Assembly: GCA_003635265.1 (NCBI GenBank)
Contig: PYIZ01000029.1
Span: 77,796-141,795 of the forward strand
Length of the DNA: 64,000 nt
Direction of reading: 5' to 3'
Source: Candidatus Poribacteria bacterium
GTDB lineage: Bacteria; Poribacteria; WGA-4E; PCPOR2b
Part shown: one piece after another, positions 6,725 through 23,210 of the stretch
Numbering within the stretch: the stretch's first letter is position 1
Layout: every line of letters begins with the position of its first letter
Notes under the pieces: generated by a model
What the model saw: the letters and a program-made list of their open reading frames with translations, nothing else
What the model was told of the DNA's origin: nothing
Databases searched by the model: none
Made by a program: the position numbers and the translations under genes

Positions 6725-7783
6725 ATGAATCGCAAGCGCATTTCAAGCACAATGCTCCTCCTTCTTGTGCTACTAAATATCTTATTCCTATTGGCAAACA
6801 TCGAAGCGGCTGCTGCTGCGGACGGGGTCATTGCATTCCTATCGTCTCGGAATAGTAAACCACCGAACCGGGGTATCAAGACGACGATTTATCTGATAAA
6901 TGCAGATGGCACCAACGAACGGAAATGGCTCGAAAACCGTCGGTGTGGTTACTACTCTCCAACTTGGTCGCCTGATGGTCGGTTCGTTGCCTTCTCTACA
7001 TGCGCCAATGACAGCGTCCATATTTTTGTTAAAGATCTCCGTACCAGCAGACAAAAGAGGATAACCCATAAGTGGGCAGGAGTATATCCCGGATATTTGG
7101 TCCGTTCCTGGTCTGGGGATGGTAAATCGTTAGCACTTTCATGTTGGGAAGCTCCCCCTCACGACGCTTCAGACATCTGCATTATTGATGTTGAAGGCAG
7201 GCGATTAAAGAACCTAACACAGCTTCCCGGCGTTGAGGATAGTAGTCCAAGTTGGTCTCCAGATTCCTCTAAAATTGCGTTTACGTCGAGCCGCGATGGA
7301 AATGACGAGATTTATGTCATGGATGCGGATGGCGGAAGCCCGGTCAATCTGACCAAGCACTCCAGAACGGATGCCGCGCCGGACTGGTCTCCGGATGGGA
7401 AAAGAATTGTATTTTATTCCGATCGGGAAGGGCAATCCGATATCTATGTGATGAACCCCGACGGTGCCAATCTGGTTAAGCTAACAGATCACCCCGCACA
7501 GGATCGCCTACCTTCGTGGTCTCCTGATGGACGGTGGATCGCCTTCATGTCGACCCGAGAAGATAGGAACTGGGAGATTTATGTCATGGATGCGACCGGA
7601 AACAATCAGACGCGAATCACCAATCATCCGTTTGCTGTCGATGTGAAGCCAGTTTCACGAGTCACCAATCATCCGGATAAGGATGTGAGGCCAGTCTGGG
7701 TGATTCCTGATCGGTCGCTTTCTGTCAATCCGCAAGGTAACCACGCCACATTGTGGGGGCAGCTCAAATCAGACAAACAGTGA
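6725..7783 (+). CDS. Secreted PD40 (TolB-like) beta-propeller repeat protein
   Basis: ORF 6668..7783. The start is moved to MNRKRISSTMLLLLVLLNILFLLANIEAAAA (signal peptide) behind a GGGAGG RBS. Blades repeat as SPxWSPDG..IAF.S.RDGN.EIYVMDADG. Confidence 0.85.
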   Translation: MNRKRISSTMLLLLVLLNILFLLANIEAAAAADGVIAFLSSRNSKPPNRGIKTTIYLINADGTNERKWLENRRCGYYSPTWSPDGRFVAFSTCANDSVHIFVKDLRTSRQKRITHKWAGVYPGYLVRSWSGDGKSLALSCWEAPPHDASDICIIDVEGRRLKNLTQLPGVEDSSPSWSPDSSKIAFTSSRDGNDEIYVMDADGGSPVNLTKHSRTDAAPDWSPDGKRIVFYSDREGQSDIYVMNPDGANLVKLTDHPAQDRLPSWSPDGRWIAFMSTREDRNWEIYVMDATGNNQTRITNHPFAVDVKPVSRVTNHPDKDVRPVWVIPDRSLSVNPQGNHATLWGQLKSDKQ

Positions 7784-7871
7784 GGGAGTCATCGCTGCTA
7801 GAGACATGGAAGTTGACCATCATATGAAACGCCGGTTCGCCTTGTAGACCGATCCCGAAAGGAGATGAAAA

Positions 7872-8858
7872 ATGACTCGAAAAAGATTTCCATGGCTTGT
7901 TTTTATCGGGGCTACGGTGTTCAGTAATTTTGCTTTGTTATCCAATGTTTGGACACAAGCACCAAAAAAGGCACAAATCGCTTTTGTCTCCGGTCGCGAT
8001 GGGGATGGAGAAATTTACGTGATGGATACCGATGGCAAAAATCAGCGGAACCTCACAAACCATCCGGCATCTGATTTCGCGCCTACTTGGTCTCCTGATG
8101 GTCGAAAAATCGCGTTTGTATCGACAAGGCGAAGAGGAAATTCCGATATTTACGTGATGGATGCAAAGGGAAAAGATGCCCAGAGACTCACAGATCATCC
8201 TGAATCAGACGAGAAGCCCGCATGGTCGCCCGATGGTCGAAAAATTGCCTTCAGTTCTAATCGAGATGGAAATTGGGAAATTTACGTAATGAATACCGAT
8301 GGCAAAAATCAGCGCAATCTAACAAACCATCCGCGGAATGATACTTCGCCCGCATGGTCGTCTGATACTCGAAAGATTGCTTTTAGGCGTGTAGGTGGTG
8401 GAACTCCTGGTATTTATGTAATGGATACTGATGGACAAAATCTTCATCGATTAAACGATGAATTACATCGTGCAACTCAACCGGCCTTGTCACCTGATGG
8501 TCGCAGGGTTGCTTTCACCTTAGGCGGAAGGCCTGGCAATGACATCTATGTGATAGATGCCGATGGAAAAAATGTCCGGCAGCTTACAGGTCCCCCAATG
8601 GATGATATCTGTCCTGCGTGGTCTCCTGACAGCCGGCAGATTGTCTTCGCCTCACGGAAAAATATTCTAGAACAGAGAAATTTTCAAAACAGGAACTACG
8701 ACATCTACGTCATTGATGTCGATGGAAACAATCTCCGGAACCTGACAAACCATCAGAGTGATGACCAAGAACCCGCATGGTTTGATCCTACATTTTCTGT
8801 TGCTACTGCTGATAAGCGTCTGCTCACTTGGGGGTGGCTCAAACAACTTGGCCGATAG
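7872..8858 (+). CDS. Secreted PD40 (TolB-like) beta-propeller repeat protein
   Basis: ORF 7872..8858 with an AGGAG RBS and a hydrophobic N-terminus. At least six PAWSPDGRKIAF...EIYVM(D/N)TDGKNQRNLT blades. Confidence 0.88.
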   Translation: MTRKRFPWLVFIGATVFSNFALLSNVWTQAPKKAQIAFVSGRDGDGEIYVMDTDGKNQRNLTNHPASDFAPTWSPDGRKIAFVSTRRRGNSDIYVMDAKGKDAQRLTDHPESDEKPAWSPDGRKIAFSSNRDGNWEIYVMNTDGKNQRNLTNHPRNDTSPAWSSDTRKIAFRRVGGGTPGIYVMDTDGQNLHRLNDELHRATQPALSPDGRRVAFTLGGRPGNDIYVIDADGKNVRQLTGPPMDDICPAWSPDSRQIVFASRKNILEQRNFQNRNYDIYVIDVDGNNLRNLTNHQSDDQEPAWFDPTFSVATADKRLLTWGWLKQLGR

Positions 8859-19945: not shown

Positions 19946-20842
19946 CTAGCCGCGATCTGGTACACGCCATTGGGCGTACCAGCGAGAATCCTGCGACGGT
20001 CCATCATCATCGCTCCAGCGGCTTTGCATACTTTCAAAGTCCTTCAGTCGTGGACGCACATCGCGTTCCCAGATCTCTTCAATTTGATCGAAGGTGAGCG
20101 GCTGACGCGTAGCTGTCGATTCAGCGTAGGTGTTGAGCAGTTCTTTTGCTTTGGTATCAAGCCACTGAACCTCGTCAGTCACCATTCGCTCACCAACTTG
20201 GCGATCCGATTCGTGTGCGGTCGGTCCCATGGCAAAGTGGGGACCCGGCGCATCTTGCGCCGGTAGGCGTGAGACATCAACGCAATCTGGCTCTAATGCC
20301 CAGAGCAGCGAGGTCTCGACCTTACCAGCATGATCGCCTCCGCTATTGCCATCGCTATCGAAGCCGGGCTGATTCGCCTCAAAATCGGGTAGACCGTACA
20401 TCCGCATGCTAAAATGTGGTTGGATGATTTCAAGCAAAGTTTTAAGATCTTTCCAGTTGGGACCGTAGTGTCCCGTCAAAAGAATGGCAGCATGAAATCC
20501 CAAGGCATCGGCTGCCCGGACGTGGTAGCAGATATTCTTGAAATGCATCCATGCGGGCATCGCGGTGAGCCACGGACGTACCTCTCCGACAGTTCGATTT
20601 CCCCAAAGTGCATAACCGCCATGTTCGTGGATATGCCAGTAATCGGGCGGGGCAACAATACCGCCATGTTCATGGGCTGTTCGGCACGCGATTGCATGTG
20701 CTTTCAAAGCGTCAAGCCCGACCGCGTTCTGGGGACCGTGGGGTTCACACAAGCCGTAGCAGAAATAGACGACAGGACATTCCTCTAACGCGGCTTCTAG
20801 TTCATCGGGGAACATCCGTTCCCAGCGCACTTCTCTTTTCAT
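19946..20842 (-). CDS. Creatininase (creatinine amidohydrolase) family protein
   Basis: ORF 19946..20911. AAGGA lies 8 nt upstream of ATG 20840-20842, favouring the MKREVRWERMFPDELE start. The YGLCEPHGPQNAVGLD and LLTGHYGPN patterns resemble the family. Confidence 0.65.
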   Translation of the reverse strand: MKREVRWERMFPDELEAALEECPVVYFCYGLCEPHGPQNAVGLDALKAHAIACRTAHEHGGIVAPPDYWHIHEHGGYALWGNRTVGEVRPWLTAMPAWMHFKNICYHVRAADALGFHAAILLTGHYGPNWKDLKTLLEIIQPHFSMRMYGLPDFEANQPGFDSDGNSGGDHAGKVETSLLWALEPDCVDVSRLPAQDAPGPHFAMGPTAHESDRQVGERMVTDEVQWLDTKAKELLNTYAESTATRQPLTFDQIEEIWERDVRPRLKDFESMQSRWSDDDGPSQDSRWYAQWRVPDRG

Positions 20843-20884
20843 CCTGATTTCCTTTTGTGTCGTATGATTCCGTGTGGCACTCAC

Positions 20885-20913
20885 GATATAATGTTGTATC
20901 ATTGTTGCCACAA
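20885..20913 (-). promoter_or_regulatory. Weak candidate sigma70 promoter for the creatininase-PhyH-oxidase operon
   Basis: Minus strand: TTGTGG (20908-20913), 17-nt spacer, TATATC (20885-20890). It would place the transcription start inside the longer ORF-track start, supporting ATG 20842. Confidence 0.3.
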
Positions 20914-21122
20914 TCTTTTCAGATTCAATTCCTGTTTACTGTGTTTAATCTAAGCAGTTTCGCAAGGATTCTGCTCTACTTCGACAGAACTGAATTATGG
21001 CATCTTAATTGCGTATATTTAGACAGACCTTTGCCAAGCAAGATTTTATGATAGCTTCATACATCTGTCAATCACAATATATGGCAGGCGGAACACGGAC
21101 TTAACAGATTTTGATTTTTCGC

Positions 21123-21151
21123 TTGGCAGTGGGTATGTCCTATGATATACT
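21123..21151 (+). promoter_or_regulatory. Sigma70 promoter with extended -10 for the Tyr-rich lipoprotein / OMP pair
   Basis: TTGGCA (21123-21128), 17-nt spacer, TGaTATACT (-10 at 21146-21151). About 50 nt upstream of ATG 21205. Confidence 0.6.
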
Positions 21152-21204
21152 CAACATATCTTGCTGAATCAATCTACAAACAATTTGCGAAAGGAAGAAT
21201 AACC

Positions 21205-21813
21205 ATGGACAGACTCGTTCTCTCTGTCACACCCCTGCTGGCAGTAATTGCCCTCGCAGGGTGTTACACGCAGGTTGGTTACTATGAGCCACGTCATTCA
21301 ACCCGACAAACCTCCTATCATCATCAAGATGAGCACCAACGCAAAGATGGGGACGAAAAGGTGGAATCCGAGGAGAAAGCGCAAAAGGAAGTTGAAGACG
21401 AAGGGTACTACGGCCGTCGCAAGCCGAGCTACGGTTATTCTGGCCGTTATTCTCGATCTTACTACTACGGCGATTACTCCTATCCCGTCTATCCATACTA
21501 CTACGGTGGCTATCATCCCCTCTATCCCTATTACAGATATTCCTACCCATATTATTCATCTTATGGATATTATCACTATTATGGAGGTTATAGGTATCGT
21601 CCTTATCGATATGGGTACTCAAAGCCGCGCTCCAAAATTAGTGATTTAAATTTCGGGAAACGACGTTCGCAAAGCTATCGGGGGATCAGATCCCGCAATC
21701 CATCTTCAAGTCGTCCAGATAGGTCATTGAGGAGGAATGAAGAGAGTAAGTCTCCCTCTTCTAGTTCGTCTGAATCGCGGCGCGACAGATCTCGAAGATC
21801 CAGAAGGAGGTAA
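21205..21813 (+). CDS. Lipoprotein with an extreme Tyr-rich low-complexity core and an Arg/Ser-rich tail
   Basis: ORF 21142..21813. The start is moved to MDRLVLSVTPLLAVIALAGC (lipobox LAGC) behind AAGGAAG. By my count, 32 Tyr fall in the 75-residue stretch EGYYGRR...YRYGYSK (21400-21624). The tail is SSSSSESRRDRSRRSRRR. Confidence 0.7.
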   Translation: MDRLVLSVTPLLAVIALAGCYTQVGYYEPRHSTRQTSYHHQDEHQRKDGDEKVESEEKAQKEVEDEGYYGRRKPSYGYSGRYSRSYYYGDYSYPVYPYYYGGYHPLYPYYRYSYPYYSSYGYYHYYGGYRYRPYRYGYSKPRSKISDLNFGKRRSQSYRGIRSRNPSSSRPDRSLRRNEESKSPSSSSSESRRDRSRRSRRR

Positions 21814-21820
21814 CGGTCCA

Positions 21821-23107
21821 ATGACAAGATTGATGAAAACCACCATTGCTTTGGCATTGATGTTCGTCTGTTTTGTGTTTGGGAGTAGCATCGGAGTTGC
21901 ACAGGATGAGGAAATTGCCATCGGTAATACCTTTGGCCTTGGTGCAAGGACGATGGGAATGGGTGGGGCATTTCTCGCTGTTGCTGATGATTTCACGACA
22001 CTTTACTGGAACCCGGCGGGGCTCGCTCAAATTAGAAAGTTTGAATTGTTTGGCAGCCTGTCACACAGCGAGCTAGATTCAGAAACAGAATTCACTCGCG
22101 GTCGTGCTGCCGAAGCCGACAATTCAAAAACTCGTCCTAACTCAATAGGTCTCGTCTATCCTTTATACGCGAATCGTGGAGGCTTTGCGTTTGCGCTTGG
22201 ATATAATCGTCCTCAGAATTTTGATTCGGAGGTTGCCATTCAGGGACTGGACCCATCTTCTGGTTCAGTGTTTAGTGGCTTTGATGTGGATGAAACAACC
22301 TCTAACAATGGTGGTATGGGTATCTGGAGTTTTGGGATGGGTGTCTTTATATCAAAAAATATCTTGCTTGGTGGCTCAATAGATTTTTGGCAGGGTTCAA
22401 GTTTCAACGAGTTAAATAGCGCGGCAGAAGACATCAATAACATTGACCCAGAATTAGCAAGTTTTGCTTTTCACGACACTGTGGACCGAGACTATTCAGG
22501 GCTCAGTGGTCGGGTAGGCGTGCTTGCTTTCGCTGGGGAAAATGTAACACTCGGTGGGACTATTACACTACCAGCAGACCTTGAGGTTCACGAGGTCTGG
22601 GAACAGCAAACGATAGTGCAATTTGATGACGGTGAAGAGGATATGGAGAGTGATGCTGGATCAATCTTATACGATATTGAACGCCCGTTTGAGTTTGGTG
22701 GAGGTGTTGCTGTCAAGTTCTTAGAGAAGCGTTTGACGCTTGCCGGTGATATACAGTTTACAGACTGGACGCAGACCGAATATGACCCGCTACCAGCAGA
22801 AGATTCACAGAATAACTTCAGTCGGTATTATGACAGTACTATGCAGGTTCGCCTCGGTGCAGAGTATCGCATACCGCGAATCGAAGCCAGTGTACGCGTC
22901 GGTTACTTCCGTGATCCAATTCCGTTTCAAGATAGAGATATAGACAATGATCGAGACTTTTTGACACTTGGGGTAGGCAAGATTTTCGACCAGATTATTA
23001 AAATTGACGTTGCCTTCATGCGAGGTTCATGGGAACAATCAGGCAATTCACTCTCAGAAAGTCAAACCTCCAACCGGGTGTTTGTGTCTGCGGGCTATCG
23101 ATATTAA
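21821..23107 (+). CDS. Outer-membrane beta-barrel protein (FadL/PorV-like)
   Basis: ORF 21737..23107. The start is moved to MTRLMKTTIALALMFVCFVFGSSIGVAQ (signal peptide). AAGGAGG at 21804-21810 lies inside the end of the upstream gene. Contains the GARTMGMGGAFLAVADDFTTLYWNPAGLA motif, and the aromatic C-terminus ...FVSAGYRY is typical of OM barrels. Confidence 0.65.
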   Translation: MTRLMKTTIALALMFVCFVFGSSIGVAQDEEIAIGNTFGLGARTMGMGGAFLAVADDFTTLYWNPAGLAQIRKFELFGSLSHSELDSETEFTRGRAAEADNSKTRPNSIGLVYPLYANRGGFAFALGYNRPQNFDSEVAIQGLDPSSGSVFSGFDVDETTSNNGGMGIWSFGMGVFISKNILLGGSIDFWQGSSFNELNSAAEDINNIDPELASFAFHDTVDRDYSGLSGRVGVLAFAGENVTLGGTITLPADLEVHEVWEQQTIVQFDDGEEDMESDAGSILYDIERPFEFGGGVAVKFLEKRLTLAGDIQFTDWTQTEYDPLPAEDSQNNFSRYYDSTMQVRLGAEYRIPRIEASVRVGYFRDPIPFQDRDIDNDRDFLTLGVGKIFDQIIKIDVAFMRGSWEQSGNSLSESQTSNRVFVSAGYRY

Positions 23108-23173
23108 AGGTTGTGATGACGAAGGACAATTGAACCGCTCAATTTGGTTTTTGGTATAACTTGAGCAAGGTAT

Positions 23174-23210
23174 AAAAAAAGGCGTTGACTGAGCATCAAC
23201 GCCTTTTTTT
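23174..23210. terminator. Bidirectional rho-independent terminator
   Basis: AAAAAAA-GGCGTTGA-ctgagca-TCAACGCC-TTTTTTT. It sits between the convergent OMP gene (+) and rplQ (-). Confidence 0.85.

Follow-up and report, generated by a model that had tools for sequence, protein, structure and literature searches.

A tyrosine-rich, predicted disordered lipoprotein family encoded beside FadL-fold outer-membrane barrels in Poribacteria and other bacteria

Introduction

The structures of the β-barrel assembly machinery (BAM) of Bacteroidota that appeared in 2025 have reportedly sharpened questions on surface lipoproteins and on barrels of the FadL fold. In these machines the conserved lipidated N-terminus of the lipoprotein BamH is wedged between strands of BamG or held in a BamG groove, and paralogous genes for BamG2 and BamH2 lie in a putative operon (PMC12578637, PMC12611786). 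In the complexes of RcsF with outer-membrane proteins, a disordered segment of the lipoprotein passes through the lumen of the partner barrel (PMC7553776, PMC9907809). Here, we describe a pair of genes that may be set beside these systems. They lie in a stretch of 64,000 nucleotides from a Candidatus Poribacteria bacterium (assembly GCA_003635265.1, contig PYIZ01000029.1, positions 77,796 to 141,795 of the forward strand), which is called the window below and whose own numbering is used throughout. Gene A (21205-21813, + strand) encodes a lipoprotein of 202 amino acids (aa) that is predicted to be disordered, and gene B (21821-23107, + strand) encodes a 428-aa outer-membrane barrel assigned to the FadL fold.

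Pairs made of a FadL-fold barrel and its dedicated lipoprotein have been known since 2025. What is undescribed in the libraries and literature searched is the family of lipoproteins represented by gene A, which we propose to call the CYTQ family, together with its motif, its predicted complete disorder and its spread over phyla. Literature searches returned no description of a Tyr-rich lipoprotein in Poribacteria or of one paired with FadL.

The lipoprotein gene

Gene A starts with ATG at 21205 and stops at 21811-21813. Its first 19 residues form a signal peptide that runs into a lipobox, L-A-G-C, with Cys20 encoded at 21262-21264 (signal peptide and lipobox together 21205-21264, + strand); G19 and C20 are invariant among 25 aligned homologues. 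Substrates of signal peptidase II were recognized by [LVI][ASTVI][GAS]C following a positively charged n-region and a hydrophobic h-region, and gene A, reading MDRLVLSVTPLLAVIALAG-C, has all three elements, its lipidation being putative. The lipobox is likewise kept in family members of other phyla. To judge from these features, the product would leave through Sec, receive its lipid at Cys20 and be bound for the outer membrane. Because a Sec/signal peptidase II signal and lipobox are present, the protein should leave the cytoplasm, and the link to eukaryotic phase-separating RNA-binding proteins that was drawn in the initial annotation of this locus does not hold as one of function or of evolution; there is no RNA-recognition motif (RRM) in the protein, and the likeness is one of composition only.

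Following the lipobox, the chain falls into regions of very different composition, all on the + strand. The lipid-proximal segment C-Y-T-Q-V-G-Y-Y (21262-21285), in which C20, Y21, T22, Q23, G25, Y26 and Y27 are invariant in the Poribacteria alignment, is a candidate for docking on the barrel. Residues 21-65 are acidic (net -5), and the spacer proper, aa 28-65 (21286-21399), is the fastest-evolving portion of the gene. Then comes a tyrosine block, aa 66-140 (21400-21624), which opens with an invariant E-G-Y-Y-G-R-R-K-P and has 32 Tyr, 11 Gly, 9 Ser, 8 Arg and 7 Pro in 75 residues. The remaining 62 residues, aa 141-202 (21625-21810), are a polycationic tail with 19 Ser and 18 Arg, net charge +15, whose terminal letters are ...SSSSSESRRDRSRRSRRR, ending in RRR. 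Near its beginning stands a short motif, D-L-N-F-G-K-R-R-S-Q-S-Y-R-G (21643-21684), a local form of the R-x-F/I/V/W-G-x-T/R-R motif of the family, with G151, R154, S155, R159 and G160 invariant or nearly so. As a whole, the 202 aa include 37 Tyr and 30 Arg. The lipobox, the three compositional regions and the count of 32 tyrosines agree with what had been read in the locus before. The tyrosine block is no recent tandem repeat at the DNA level; the sole output of Tandem Repeats Finder on it was a weak 18-nt array of 2 copies (21549-21585). An AlphaFold2 model built with the 25 homologues has a mean predicted local distance difference test score (pLDDT) of 46.7 and a predicted template-modelling (TM) score of 0.13, and its sole structure is the helix of the signal peptide. 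Gene A is accordingly predicted by the model to be completely disordered, without a folded domain.

Is such a sequence a gene at all? DNA of low complexity may be open by chance in several frames, or the frame may have been misread, and other frames are indeed open across the Tyr-rich DNA, for example 21248-21649 on the + strand and 21227-21622 on the - strand, as the initial annotation had cautioned. In at least one case, that of P0140 (579 aa), a public gene call followed an alternative frame and ran it into the barrel gene. Against this stand the substitution patterns. When the called frame was compared with five relatives at synonymous distances (dS) of 0.5-0.8, the ratio of nonsynonymous to synonymous substitution (dN/dS) was 0.18-0.24 for the whole gene, 0.11-0.23 for the tyrosine block, 0.14-0.26 for the tail and 0.23-0.52 for the acidic spacer, which indicates purifying selection on that frame. 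Moreover, 20 further Poribacteria loci have the open reading frame (ORF) unbroken, every length change among them is in frame, and the lipobox and motifs persist at 35% identity and across phyla. By these comparisons gene A is truly coding in the called frame, and the chance that it is a non-gene or a wrong frame is negligible.

P0140 itself was considered as a natural fusion of A and B and was ruled out, its N-terminal part being an alternative frame of the Tyr-rich DNA (…TTATPIPPIHT…) through which the public call stretches the barrel gene upstream into a false fusion. Automatic annotation of this locus is unreliable.

The CYTQ family

A sequence search gave 74 homologues of gene A. For both genes of the pair, the best matches with a name come from Candidatus Poribacteria, which marks the window as part of a Poribacteria chromosome. 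When an N-terminal alignment from several phyla was used in a word-indexed profile search, no more than eight further proteins came to light, and it was an exhaustive HMMER search that revealed the family, which counts 264 or more clusters at 50% identity (E <= 1e-3). The segment C-Y-T-[QKRME]-hydrophobic is present in 134 of 145 distant representatives. The order of elements is a common one: lipobox, C-Y-T-Q-hydrophobic, an acidic stretch, a block of Tyr/Trp, Pro, Gly and Asp, the R-x-F-G motif and a cationic tail. The region before the aromatic block carries -0.16 charge per residue and the tail +0.12, with acidic residues starting at +6 to +12 across the family. Members outside Poribacteria use Trp in addition to Tyr, and have tails of up to about 250 aa made of Ser, Thr, Arg, Lys and Gly; tail lengths over the family extend from 35 to 250 aa.

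Two short elements of the basic part exceed what shuffled sequences give. The motif R-x-[F/I/V/W]-G-x-[T/R]-R, about 5 residues past the aromatic block, is found in 33 of 121 sequences (1.1 in shuffles); this pattern supersedes an earlier, narrower one for the post-aromatic basic motif, which had found 5 of 121. A dibasic pair lies among the last 4 residues of 67 of the 121 members (5.5 in shuffles). In other phyla the terminal Arg codons are CGN or AGA and bear no likeness to a Shine-Dalgarno (SD) sequence; the basic C-terminus therefore belongs to the protein itself.

To go by the alignments, the family is defined by its C-Y-T-Q-hydrophobic segment plus short linear motifs, not by Tyr repeats, and gene A fits it by its lipobox and C-Y-T-Q-hydrophobic segment, by the acidic-aromatic-cationic order and by a FadL-fold gene immediately downstream. 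What had been missed before is that this family is large, spans several phyla and, on the sequence evidence, is marked by that segment. Neither gene A nor other family members have a Pfam or NCBIfam match, the lipoprotein profile found nothing meaningful in the PDB and no PDB chain is similar to gene A, and every source name among the members is "hypothetical protein", all of which bears out the earlier remark that no described family covers this protein.

Pairing of lipoprotein and barrel genes

Among the 20 species-level Poribacteria loci with upstream sequence, 19 have the lipoprotein gene upstream of the barrel gene, and lipoproteins with 35-40% identity to A still stand directly upstream of the barrel in differing surroundings. 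The sole exception is L057 (OZ251518.1, 2812-5260), where the barrel gene adjoins rplQ/rpoA and is preceded by a gene for an N6/N4 DNA methylase, and where the 4 kb around the barrel hold no CYTQ lipoprotein; following an insertion, the lipoprotein gene has there been lost or relocated.

The other phyla were scanned with the barrel profile, with one genome per species. Barrels of 24-34% identity were found in Calditrichota, Latescibacterota, Bacteroidota/Cytophagia, KSB1, Marinimicrobia, Ignavibacteria and unclassified metagenome-assembled genomes (MAGs), and in 17 non-Poribacteria loci a lipoprotein of the same design is encoded directly upstream. The gap between the two genes is mostly 11-60 nt, with a 4-nt overlap in two loci. 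The reverse test gives the same answer, since distant lipoproteins taken as the starting point lead back to the barrel. The initial annotation had guessed from a single locus that the barrel is a dedicated partner of the lipoprotein, and the pairing in Poribacteria and beyond, seen from both sides, lends this guess considerable weight. It had also named, as a sign to the contrary, an ORF absent or frameshifted in relatives that retain the barrel: the ORF is intact in the 20 loci compared above, while L057 does keep a barrel without an adjacent lipoprotein. Many barrel homologues at 23-33% identity are likewise without the lipoprotein, in several Latescibacterota loci, Gemmatimonadota, Planctomycetota, Aminicenantes and MAGs labelled Pseudomonadota.

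No universal conserved third gene was found among the loci examined, and candidates recur in some lineages only. An ORF of about 250 aa lies just upstream of the lipoprotein gene in four loci (L028 1058-1831, L049 2140-2925, L045 2629-3393 and L059 1566-2882) and is also present at L038 3267-3995 and in similar Latescibacterota loci; in several Latescibacterota loci it stands directly upstream of the barrel gene with no lipoprotein between. It has weak, below-threshold matches to YjbH/DUF5777, is probably a small β-barrel, and may be a third, lineage-specific component. Downstream of the main pair in L052, at a distance of a few kb (6931-8381), a YjbH-like ORF is followed by a second, shorter lipoprotein starting C-Y-T-M-L, and a similar one is found in L045; this suggests paralogous sub-types of the module. 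Genes with a TonB C-terminal domain flank the pair on both sides in L029 (1756-2415 and 5246-6094), with homologous ORFs in L052 and L053; such flanked pairs occur in Cytophagia, KSB1 and one unclassified MAG. In Calditrichota, genes of sigma-54 two-component regulators lie upstream of the pair (L042 7-2559). In one Poribacteria lineage, a 223-aa ORF without a Pfam match follows the barrel gene on the same strand (L001 8221-8892); the window has no such ORF, and a terminator lies directly 3' of the barrel gene.

The partner barrel

Gene B has a signal peptide (aa 1-27, predicted cleavage after A27), and its mature N-terminus is conserved as Q-x-E-E-I-A-I-G-N-T-F-G-x-G-A-R. It matches the Pfam family Toluene_X (PF03349, OMPP1/FadL/TodX) over residues 46-406 with 37.7 bits, above the gathering score of 29.7, and PF03349 is precomputed on nearly all of its 596 homologues. 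The AlphaFold2 model is moderate: pLDDT is 61.7, residues 17-66 lie below 50, and the strand count is ambiguous. In a Foldseek search of the PDB with this model the top 27 matches are all FadL, TodX, TbuX, CymD or BamG (E 1e-9 to 1e-14, TM-score 0.5-0.6), and those at the very top, TodX, FadL and BamG, reach E 1e-12 to 1e-14 and TM-score 0.55-0.6; the BamG chains come from the BAM structures of B. thetaiotaomicron, P. gingivalis and F. johnsoniae. A search of the PDB with the barrel profile gave weak partial matches only. Thus, as far as the model goes, gene B is clearly a FadL-fold barrel of the 14-strand type, as its first description as FadL/PorV-like with a signal peptide had it.

Among curated families the assignment is less simple. 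The best full-length NCBIfam match of gene B is BamG (NF053685), with 57.6 bits for an equivalog cut-off of 250. Nine of ten partner barrels from other phyla also match BamG over most of the model, at 37.6-83.5 bits; the tenth, the Marinimicrobia barrel of L050, has no BamG match. With the PorV/PorQ profiles (NF033709, NF033710, NF033711), gene B scores 60.4 bits for PorV_fam (cut-off 90), the best stretch being residues 39-75, and 18.9 for T9SS_OM_PorV (cut-off 250). Its N-terminal 40-50 residues are therefore nearest to PorV/PorQ, and its full length is nearest to BamG. Gene B, like the tested partner barrels, misses every curated BamG and PorV/PorQ cut-off, and it therefore belongs to a separate subfamily. 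Within Poribacteria, gene B has a mean column identity of 69%, long non-strand segments included, which is unusually high for an outer-membrane protein.

Such resemblances raise the possibility that the pair is an accessory of BAM, in which B, like BamG, would be bound to BamA while A stands in for BamH or for the Tyr-rich loop of BamA, the pair aiding the folding of outer-membrane proteins or surface lipoproteins. The profile scores of B and the partner barrels, the BamG chains among the top structural matches, and the unusual conservation of B are in keeping with it, and so is the precedent, as BamG holds its lipoprotein partner by the lipidated N-terminus and BamA of Bacteroidota is overlain by a disordered loop rich in Tyr. 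But the scores fall far below the equivalog cut-off of BamG, A is similar to neither BamH nor any PDB chain in sequence or fold, and none of the loci examined has a bamA or bamD gene nearby. FCB-group (Fibrobacterota-Chlorobiota-Bacteroidota) phyla with the pair reportedly have a BamG and BamH of their own, so that the pair would be an extra paralogue. We regard this role as improbable.

The same barrel could also be a true FadL-type importer of hydrophobic or aromatic compounds, with the aromatic block of A concentrating them at the mouth of the channel. For this one may cite the Toluene_X match above threshold, the place of TodX, CymD and FadL among the top structural matches, and VolA of Vibrio cholerae, a surface lipoprotein which reportedly acts beside FadL in lipid use (PMC3656444). 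However, the match to the transport-type FadL profile is weak at its 37.7 bits, no catabolic or fatty-acid genes are conserved beside the pair in the loci examined, and in Poribacteria the pair adjoins the ribosomal-protein/rpoA cluster. The polycationic tail and acidic spacer would have no role in such capture, which seems to us even less probable than service to BAM.

Expression signals of the gene pair

The initial annotation described the two genes as a self-contained bicistron, and its promoter, coupled ribosome-binding site and terminator are all borne out. The promoter is of the sigma-70 type with an extended -10 element (21123-21151, + strand): TTGGCA (21123-21128), a 17-nt spacer and TG-a-TATACT (21143-21151), with 10 of 12 consensus matches in addition to the TG extension. 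At the junction of the two genes, the last three Arg codons of gene A, AGA AGG AGG (within 21802-21813), double as the SD sequence of gene B, AAGGAGG (21804-21810, + strand), which is thus placed inside the end of gene A as had been proposed. Identical bases serve a conserved dibasic C-terminus at the protein level and a translation signal. From the gene A stop to the gene B ATG at 21821 the spacer is 7 nt.

An intrinsic terminator acting on both strands (23174-23210) lies between gene B and the convergent rplQ and is common to both. It consists of A7, an 8-bp GC stem (arms 23181-23188 and 23196-23203), a 7-nt loop and T7, with the A-run and T-run at its flanks; folding gives -24.4 kcal/mol (z -5.7), and none of 200 shuffles was equally stable. 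The consensus scanner did not pick up this terminator though folding reveals it, probably because the A and U runs pair and lengthen the stem.

On the other side of gene A, a near-consensus promoter-like site on the - strand (21043-21071; TTGACA, 17-nt spacer, TAAAAT, 11 of 12) points toward a divergent gene of the creatininase family (19946-20911). The 290-nt intergenic region upstream of gene A thus holds two back-to-back promoters.

A possible docking mechanism

What could such a pair do? We tentatively favour a two-partner module of the outer membrane, in which A docks on B through its CYTQ segment and the chain is displayed as a binder at the envelope or cell surface, although as a whole this scheme has somewhat less than an even chance of being right. 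Its first step is its firmest, for analysis of the locus and its relatives makes it probable that A and B are physically complexed through the CYTQ segment. The invariant lipid-proximal C-Y-T-Q-hydrophobic(-G-Y-Y) segment of A would dock on its own barrel, either at the lateral opening that FadL-fold barrels typically have or by way of it, on the model of BamH in BamG. The barrel might in addition be a conduit that carries the chain to the cell surface, compared with RcsF through OmpA/C/F; a conduit is conceivable because A is predicted to be entirely unfolded and its family has no folded domain. Display of at least part of the chain on the surface by way of the barrel is conjectural, with odds again a little short of even. 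It is to be noted that BamA of Bacteroidota has a disordered, extracellular loop rich in Tyr, Gly and Asn, so that such sequences do occur on the surface of related bacteria.

The chain itself is a polyampholyte, composed of an acidic spacer, a "sticker" block of Tyr(/Trp), Pro and Gly, the R-x-F-G-x-R-R motif and the Ser/Arg tail. Aromatic and cationic at once, it could serve as a multivalent binder of polyanionic polymers of the envelope or matrix, with lipopolysaccharide, capsule, exopolysaccharide, extracellular DNA and host or mineral surfaces as candidate targets. That the final role would be adhesion or organisation of the envelope, and not transport or assistance to BAM, is a more doubtful step than display.

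Several points tell against the docking and display scheme. The interaction, topology and function of A and B are inferred from sequence and precedent. The barrel model has the moderate quality given above, with N-terminal residues 17-66 below 50 pLDDT, and a BamG-like N-terminal extension or an open lateral gate would be conjectural in it. FadL-type lumens are normally plugged by an N-terminal hatch, and the N-terminus of gene B is highly conserved. A barrel can exist without an adjacent partner, as L057 exemplifies. What follows the Cys of A is Y-T-Q-hydrophobic, and not the acidic export signal of Bacteroidota surface lipoproteins (criterion of PMC12578637). Lastly, the polycationic chain suits binding of peptidoglycan in the periplasm just as well.

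These last points lead to another reading, in which the Ser/Arg tail binds peptidoglycan or the anionic lipids of the inner membrane and thereby links the outer membrane to the wall without a covalent bond, in the manner of OmpA, Pal or Lpp, with the work divided between two proteins. Outer-membrane lipoproteins sit in the inner leaflet by default, and A has no acidic export signal directly after its Cys. Tails of 35 to 250 aa at +0.12 charge per residue, with a conserved dibasic end, would suit the task, and long disordered linkers that span the periplasm are known in LpoB, TonB and TolA. On the other hand, a lipid anchor alone would suffice for a tether, which leaves the syntenic, translationally coupled barrel and the invariant motif unexplained, and gives the acidic and aromatic blocks no obvious role. 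The C-terminus is Arg and not Lys as in the covalent attachment of Lpp, and Pfam and NCBIfam scans of gene A found no known peptidoglycan-binding domain. Taken alone this periplasmic tether is rather unlikely, but it ranks nearly as likely as docking and display.

Beyond docking and display one may extrapolate to an unrecognised surface route, in which a FadL-type lateral gate exports and anchors a single lipoprotein dedicated to it and designed to be unfolded, whose Tyr/Arg sticker-and-spacer chain, like FUS or mussel foot proteins, self-associates or cross-links into a condensate-, hydrogel- or glue-like coat of the outer membrane, widespread in Poribacteria and FCB-group phyla. We consider this full scenario unlikely. 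Self-association driven by Tyr and Arg at a membrane surface is nonetheless a legitimate physical possibility.

Implications

The pair is relevant to the delivery of lipoproteins to the cell surface and to the roles of the FadL fold beyond lipid uptake. It offers a simpler, two-gene case: a lipoprotein with nothing to unfold and with an invariant lipid-proximal motif, in which docking and threading are directly testable. The clusters of the family, at least 264 at 50% identity and so far "hypothetical protein", gain an annotation across several poorly studied phyla, among them the candidate phylum Poribacteria, which was discovered in marine sponges. The family also adds to the bacterial repertoire a protein that is exported, membrane-anchored, rich in Tyr and Arg and, by prediction, fully disordered; Tyr/Arg-rich disordered sequences have mostly been discussed for eukaryotic condensates and marine adhesives.

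Comparison with known systems

How does the pair stand beside described systems? The [G/S]Y[G/S] and RS domains of FUS-like proteins and the mussel foot proteins resemble A in composition only, with Tyr and Arg dominating and Gly/Ser as spacers; A is a secreted bacterial lipoprotein with no RRM or other Pfam domain, and it shows neither homology to them nor signs of DOPA or phosphorylation chemistry. Loop 3 of BamA, in the outer-membrane machine of Bacteroidota, is likewise disordered and rich in Tyr (12-13 among 38-39 residues), but it is part of BamA and not a separate lipoprotein, and lacks a cationic tail. From Lpp-type anchors gene A differs in having no helix beyond its signal peptide and in ending with Arg-Arg-Arg instead of Lys, and from Bacteroidota-type surface lipoproteins in reading C-Y-T-Q-V-G-Y-Y-E after Cys, with no acidic signal (criterion of PMC12578637).

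Among the systems that join a barrel to a protein partner, PorV and PorQ of type IX secretion (T9SS) are FadL-fold barrels that bind protein partners, and the N-terminal 40-50 residues of gene B match their profile; yet gene B is below every cut-off, neither T9SS genes nor C-terminal sorting domains lie near the pair, and A has no T9SS C-terminal domain. RcsF of Enterobacteria, likewise an outer-membrane lipoprotein, has a disordered segment threaded through OmpA, OmpC or OmpF (PMC7553776, PMC9907809), but it has a folded signalling domain, its partners are general porins that are not encoded with it, and there is no sequence similarity. For BamG-BamH the differences are plain: the 57.6 bits of gene B stay far under the 250 required, A is predicted disordered, Tyr-rich and polycationic with a C-Y-T-Q start while BamH forms a large, folded scaffold and carries an acidic export signal, and an association with BamA would be conjectural for A-B. 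Still, both are pairs of a FadL-fold barrel and a lipoprotein in FCB-group phyla, BamG is the best full-length profile match of gene B, the lipidated N-terminus of BamH is held by BamG, and the paralogues BamG2 and BamH2 are encoded together.

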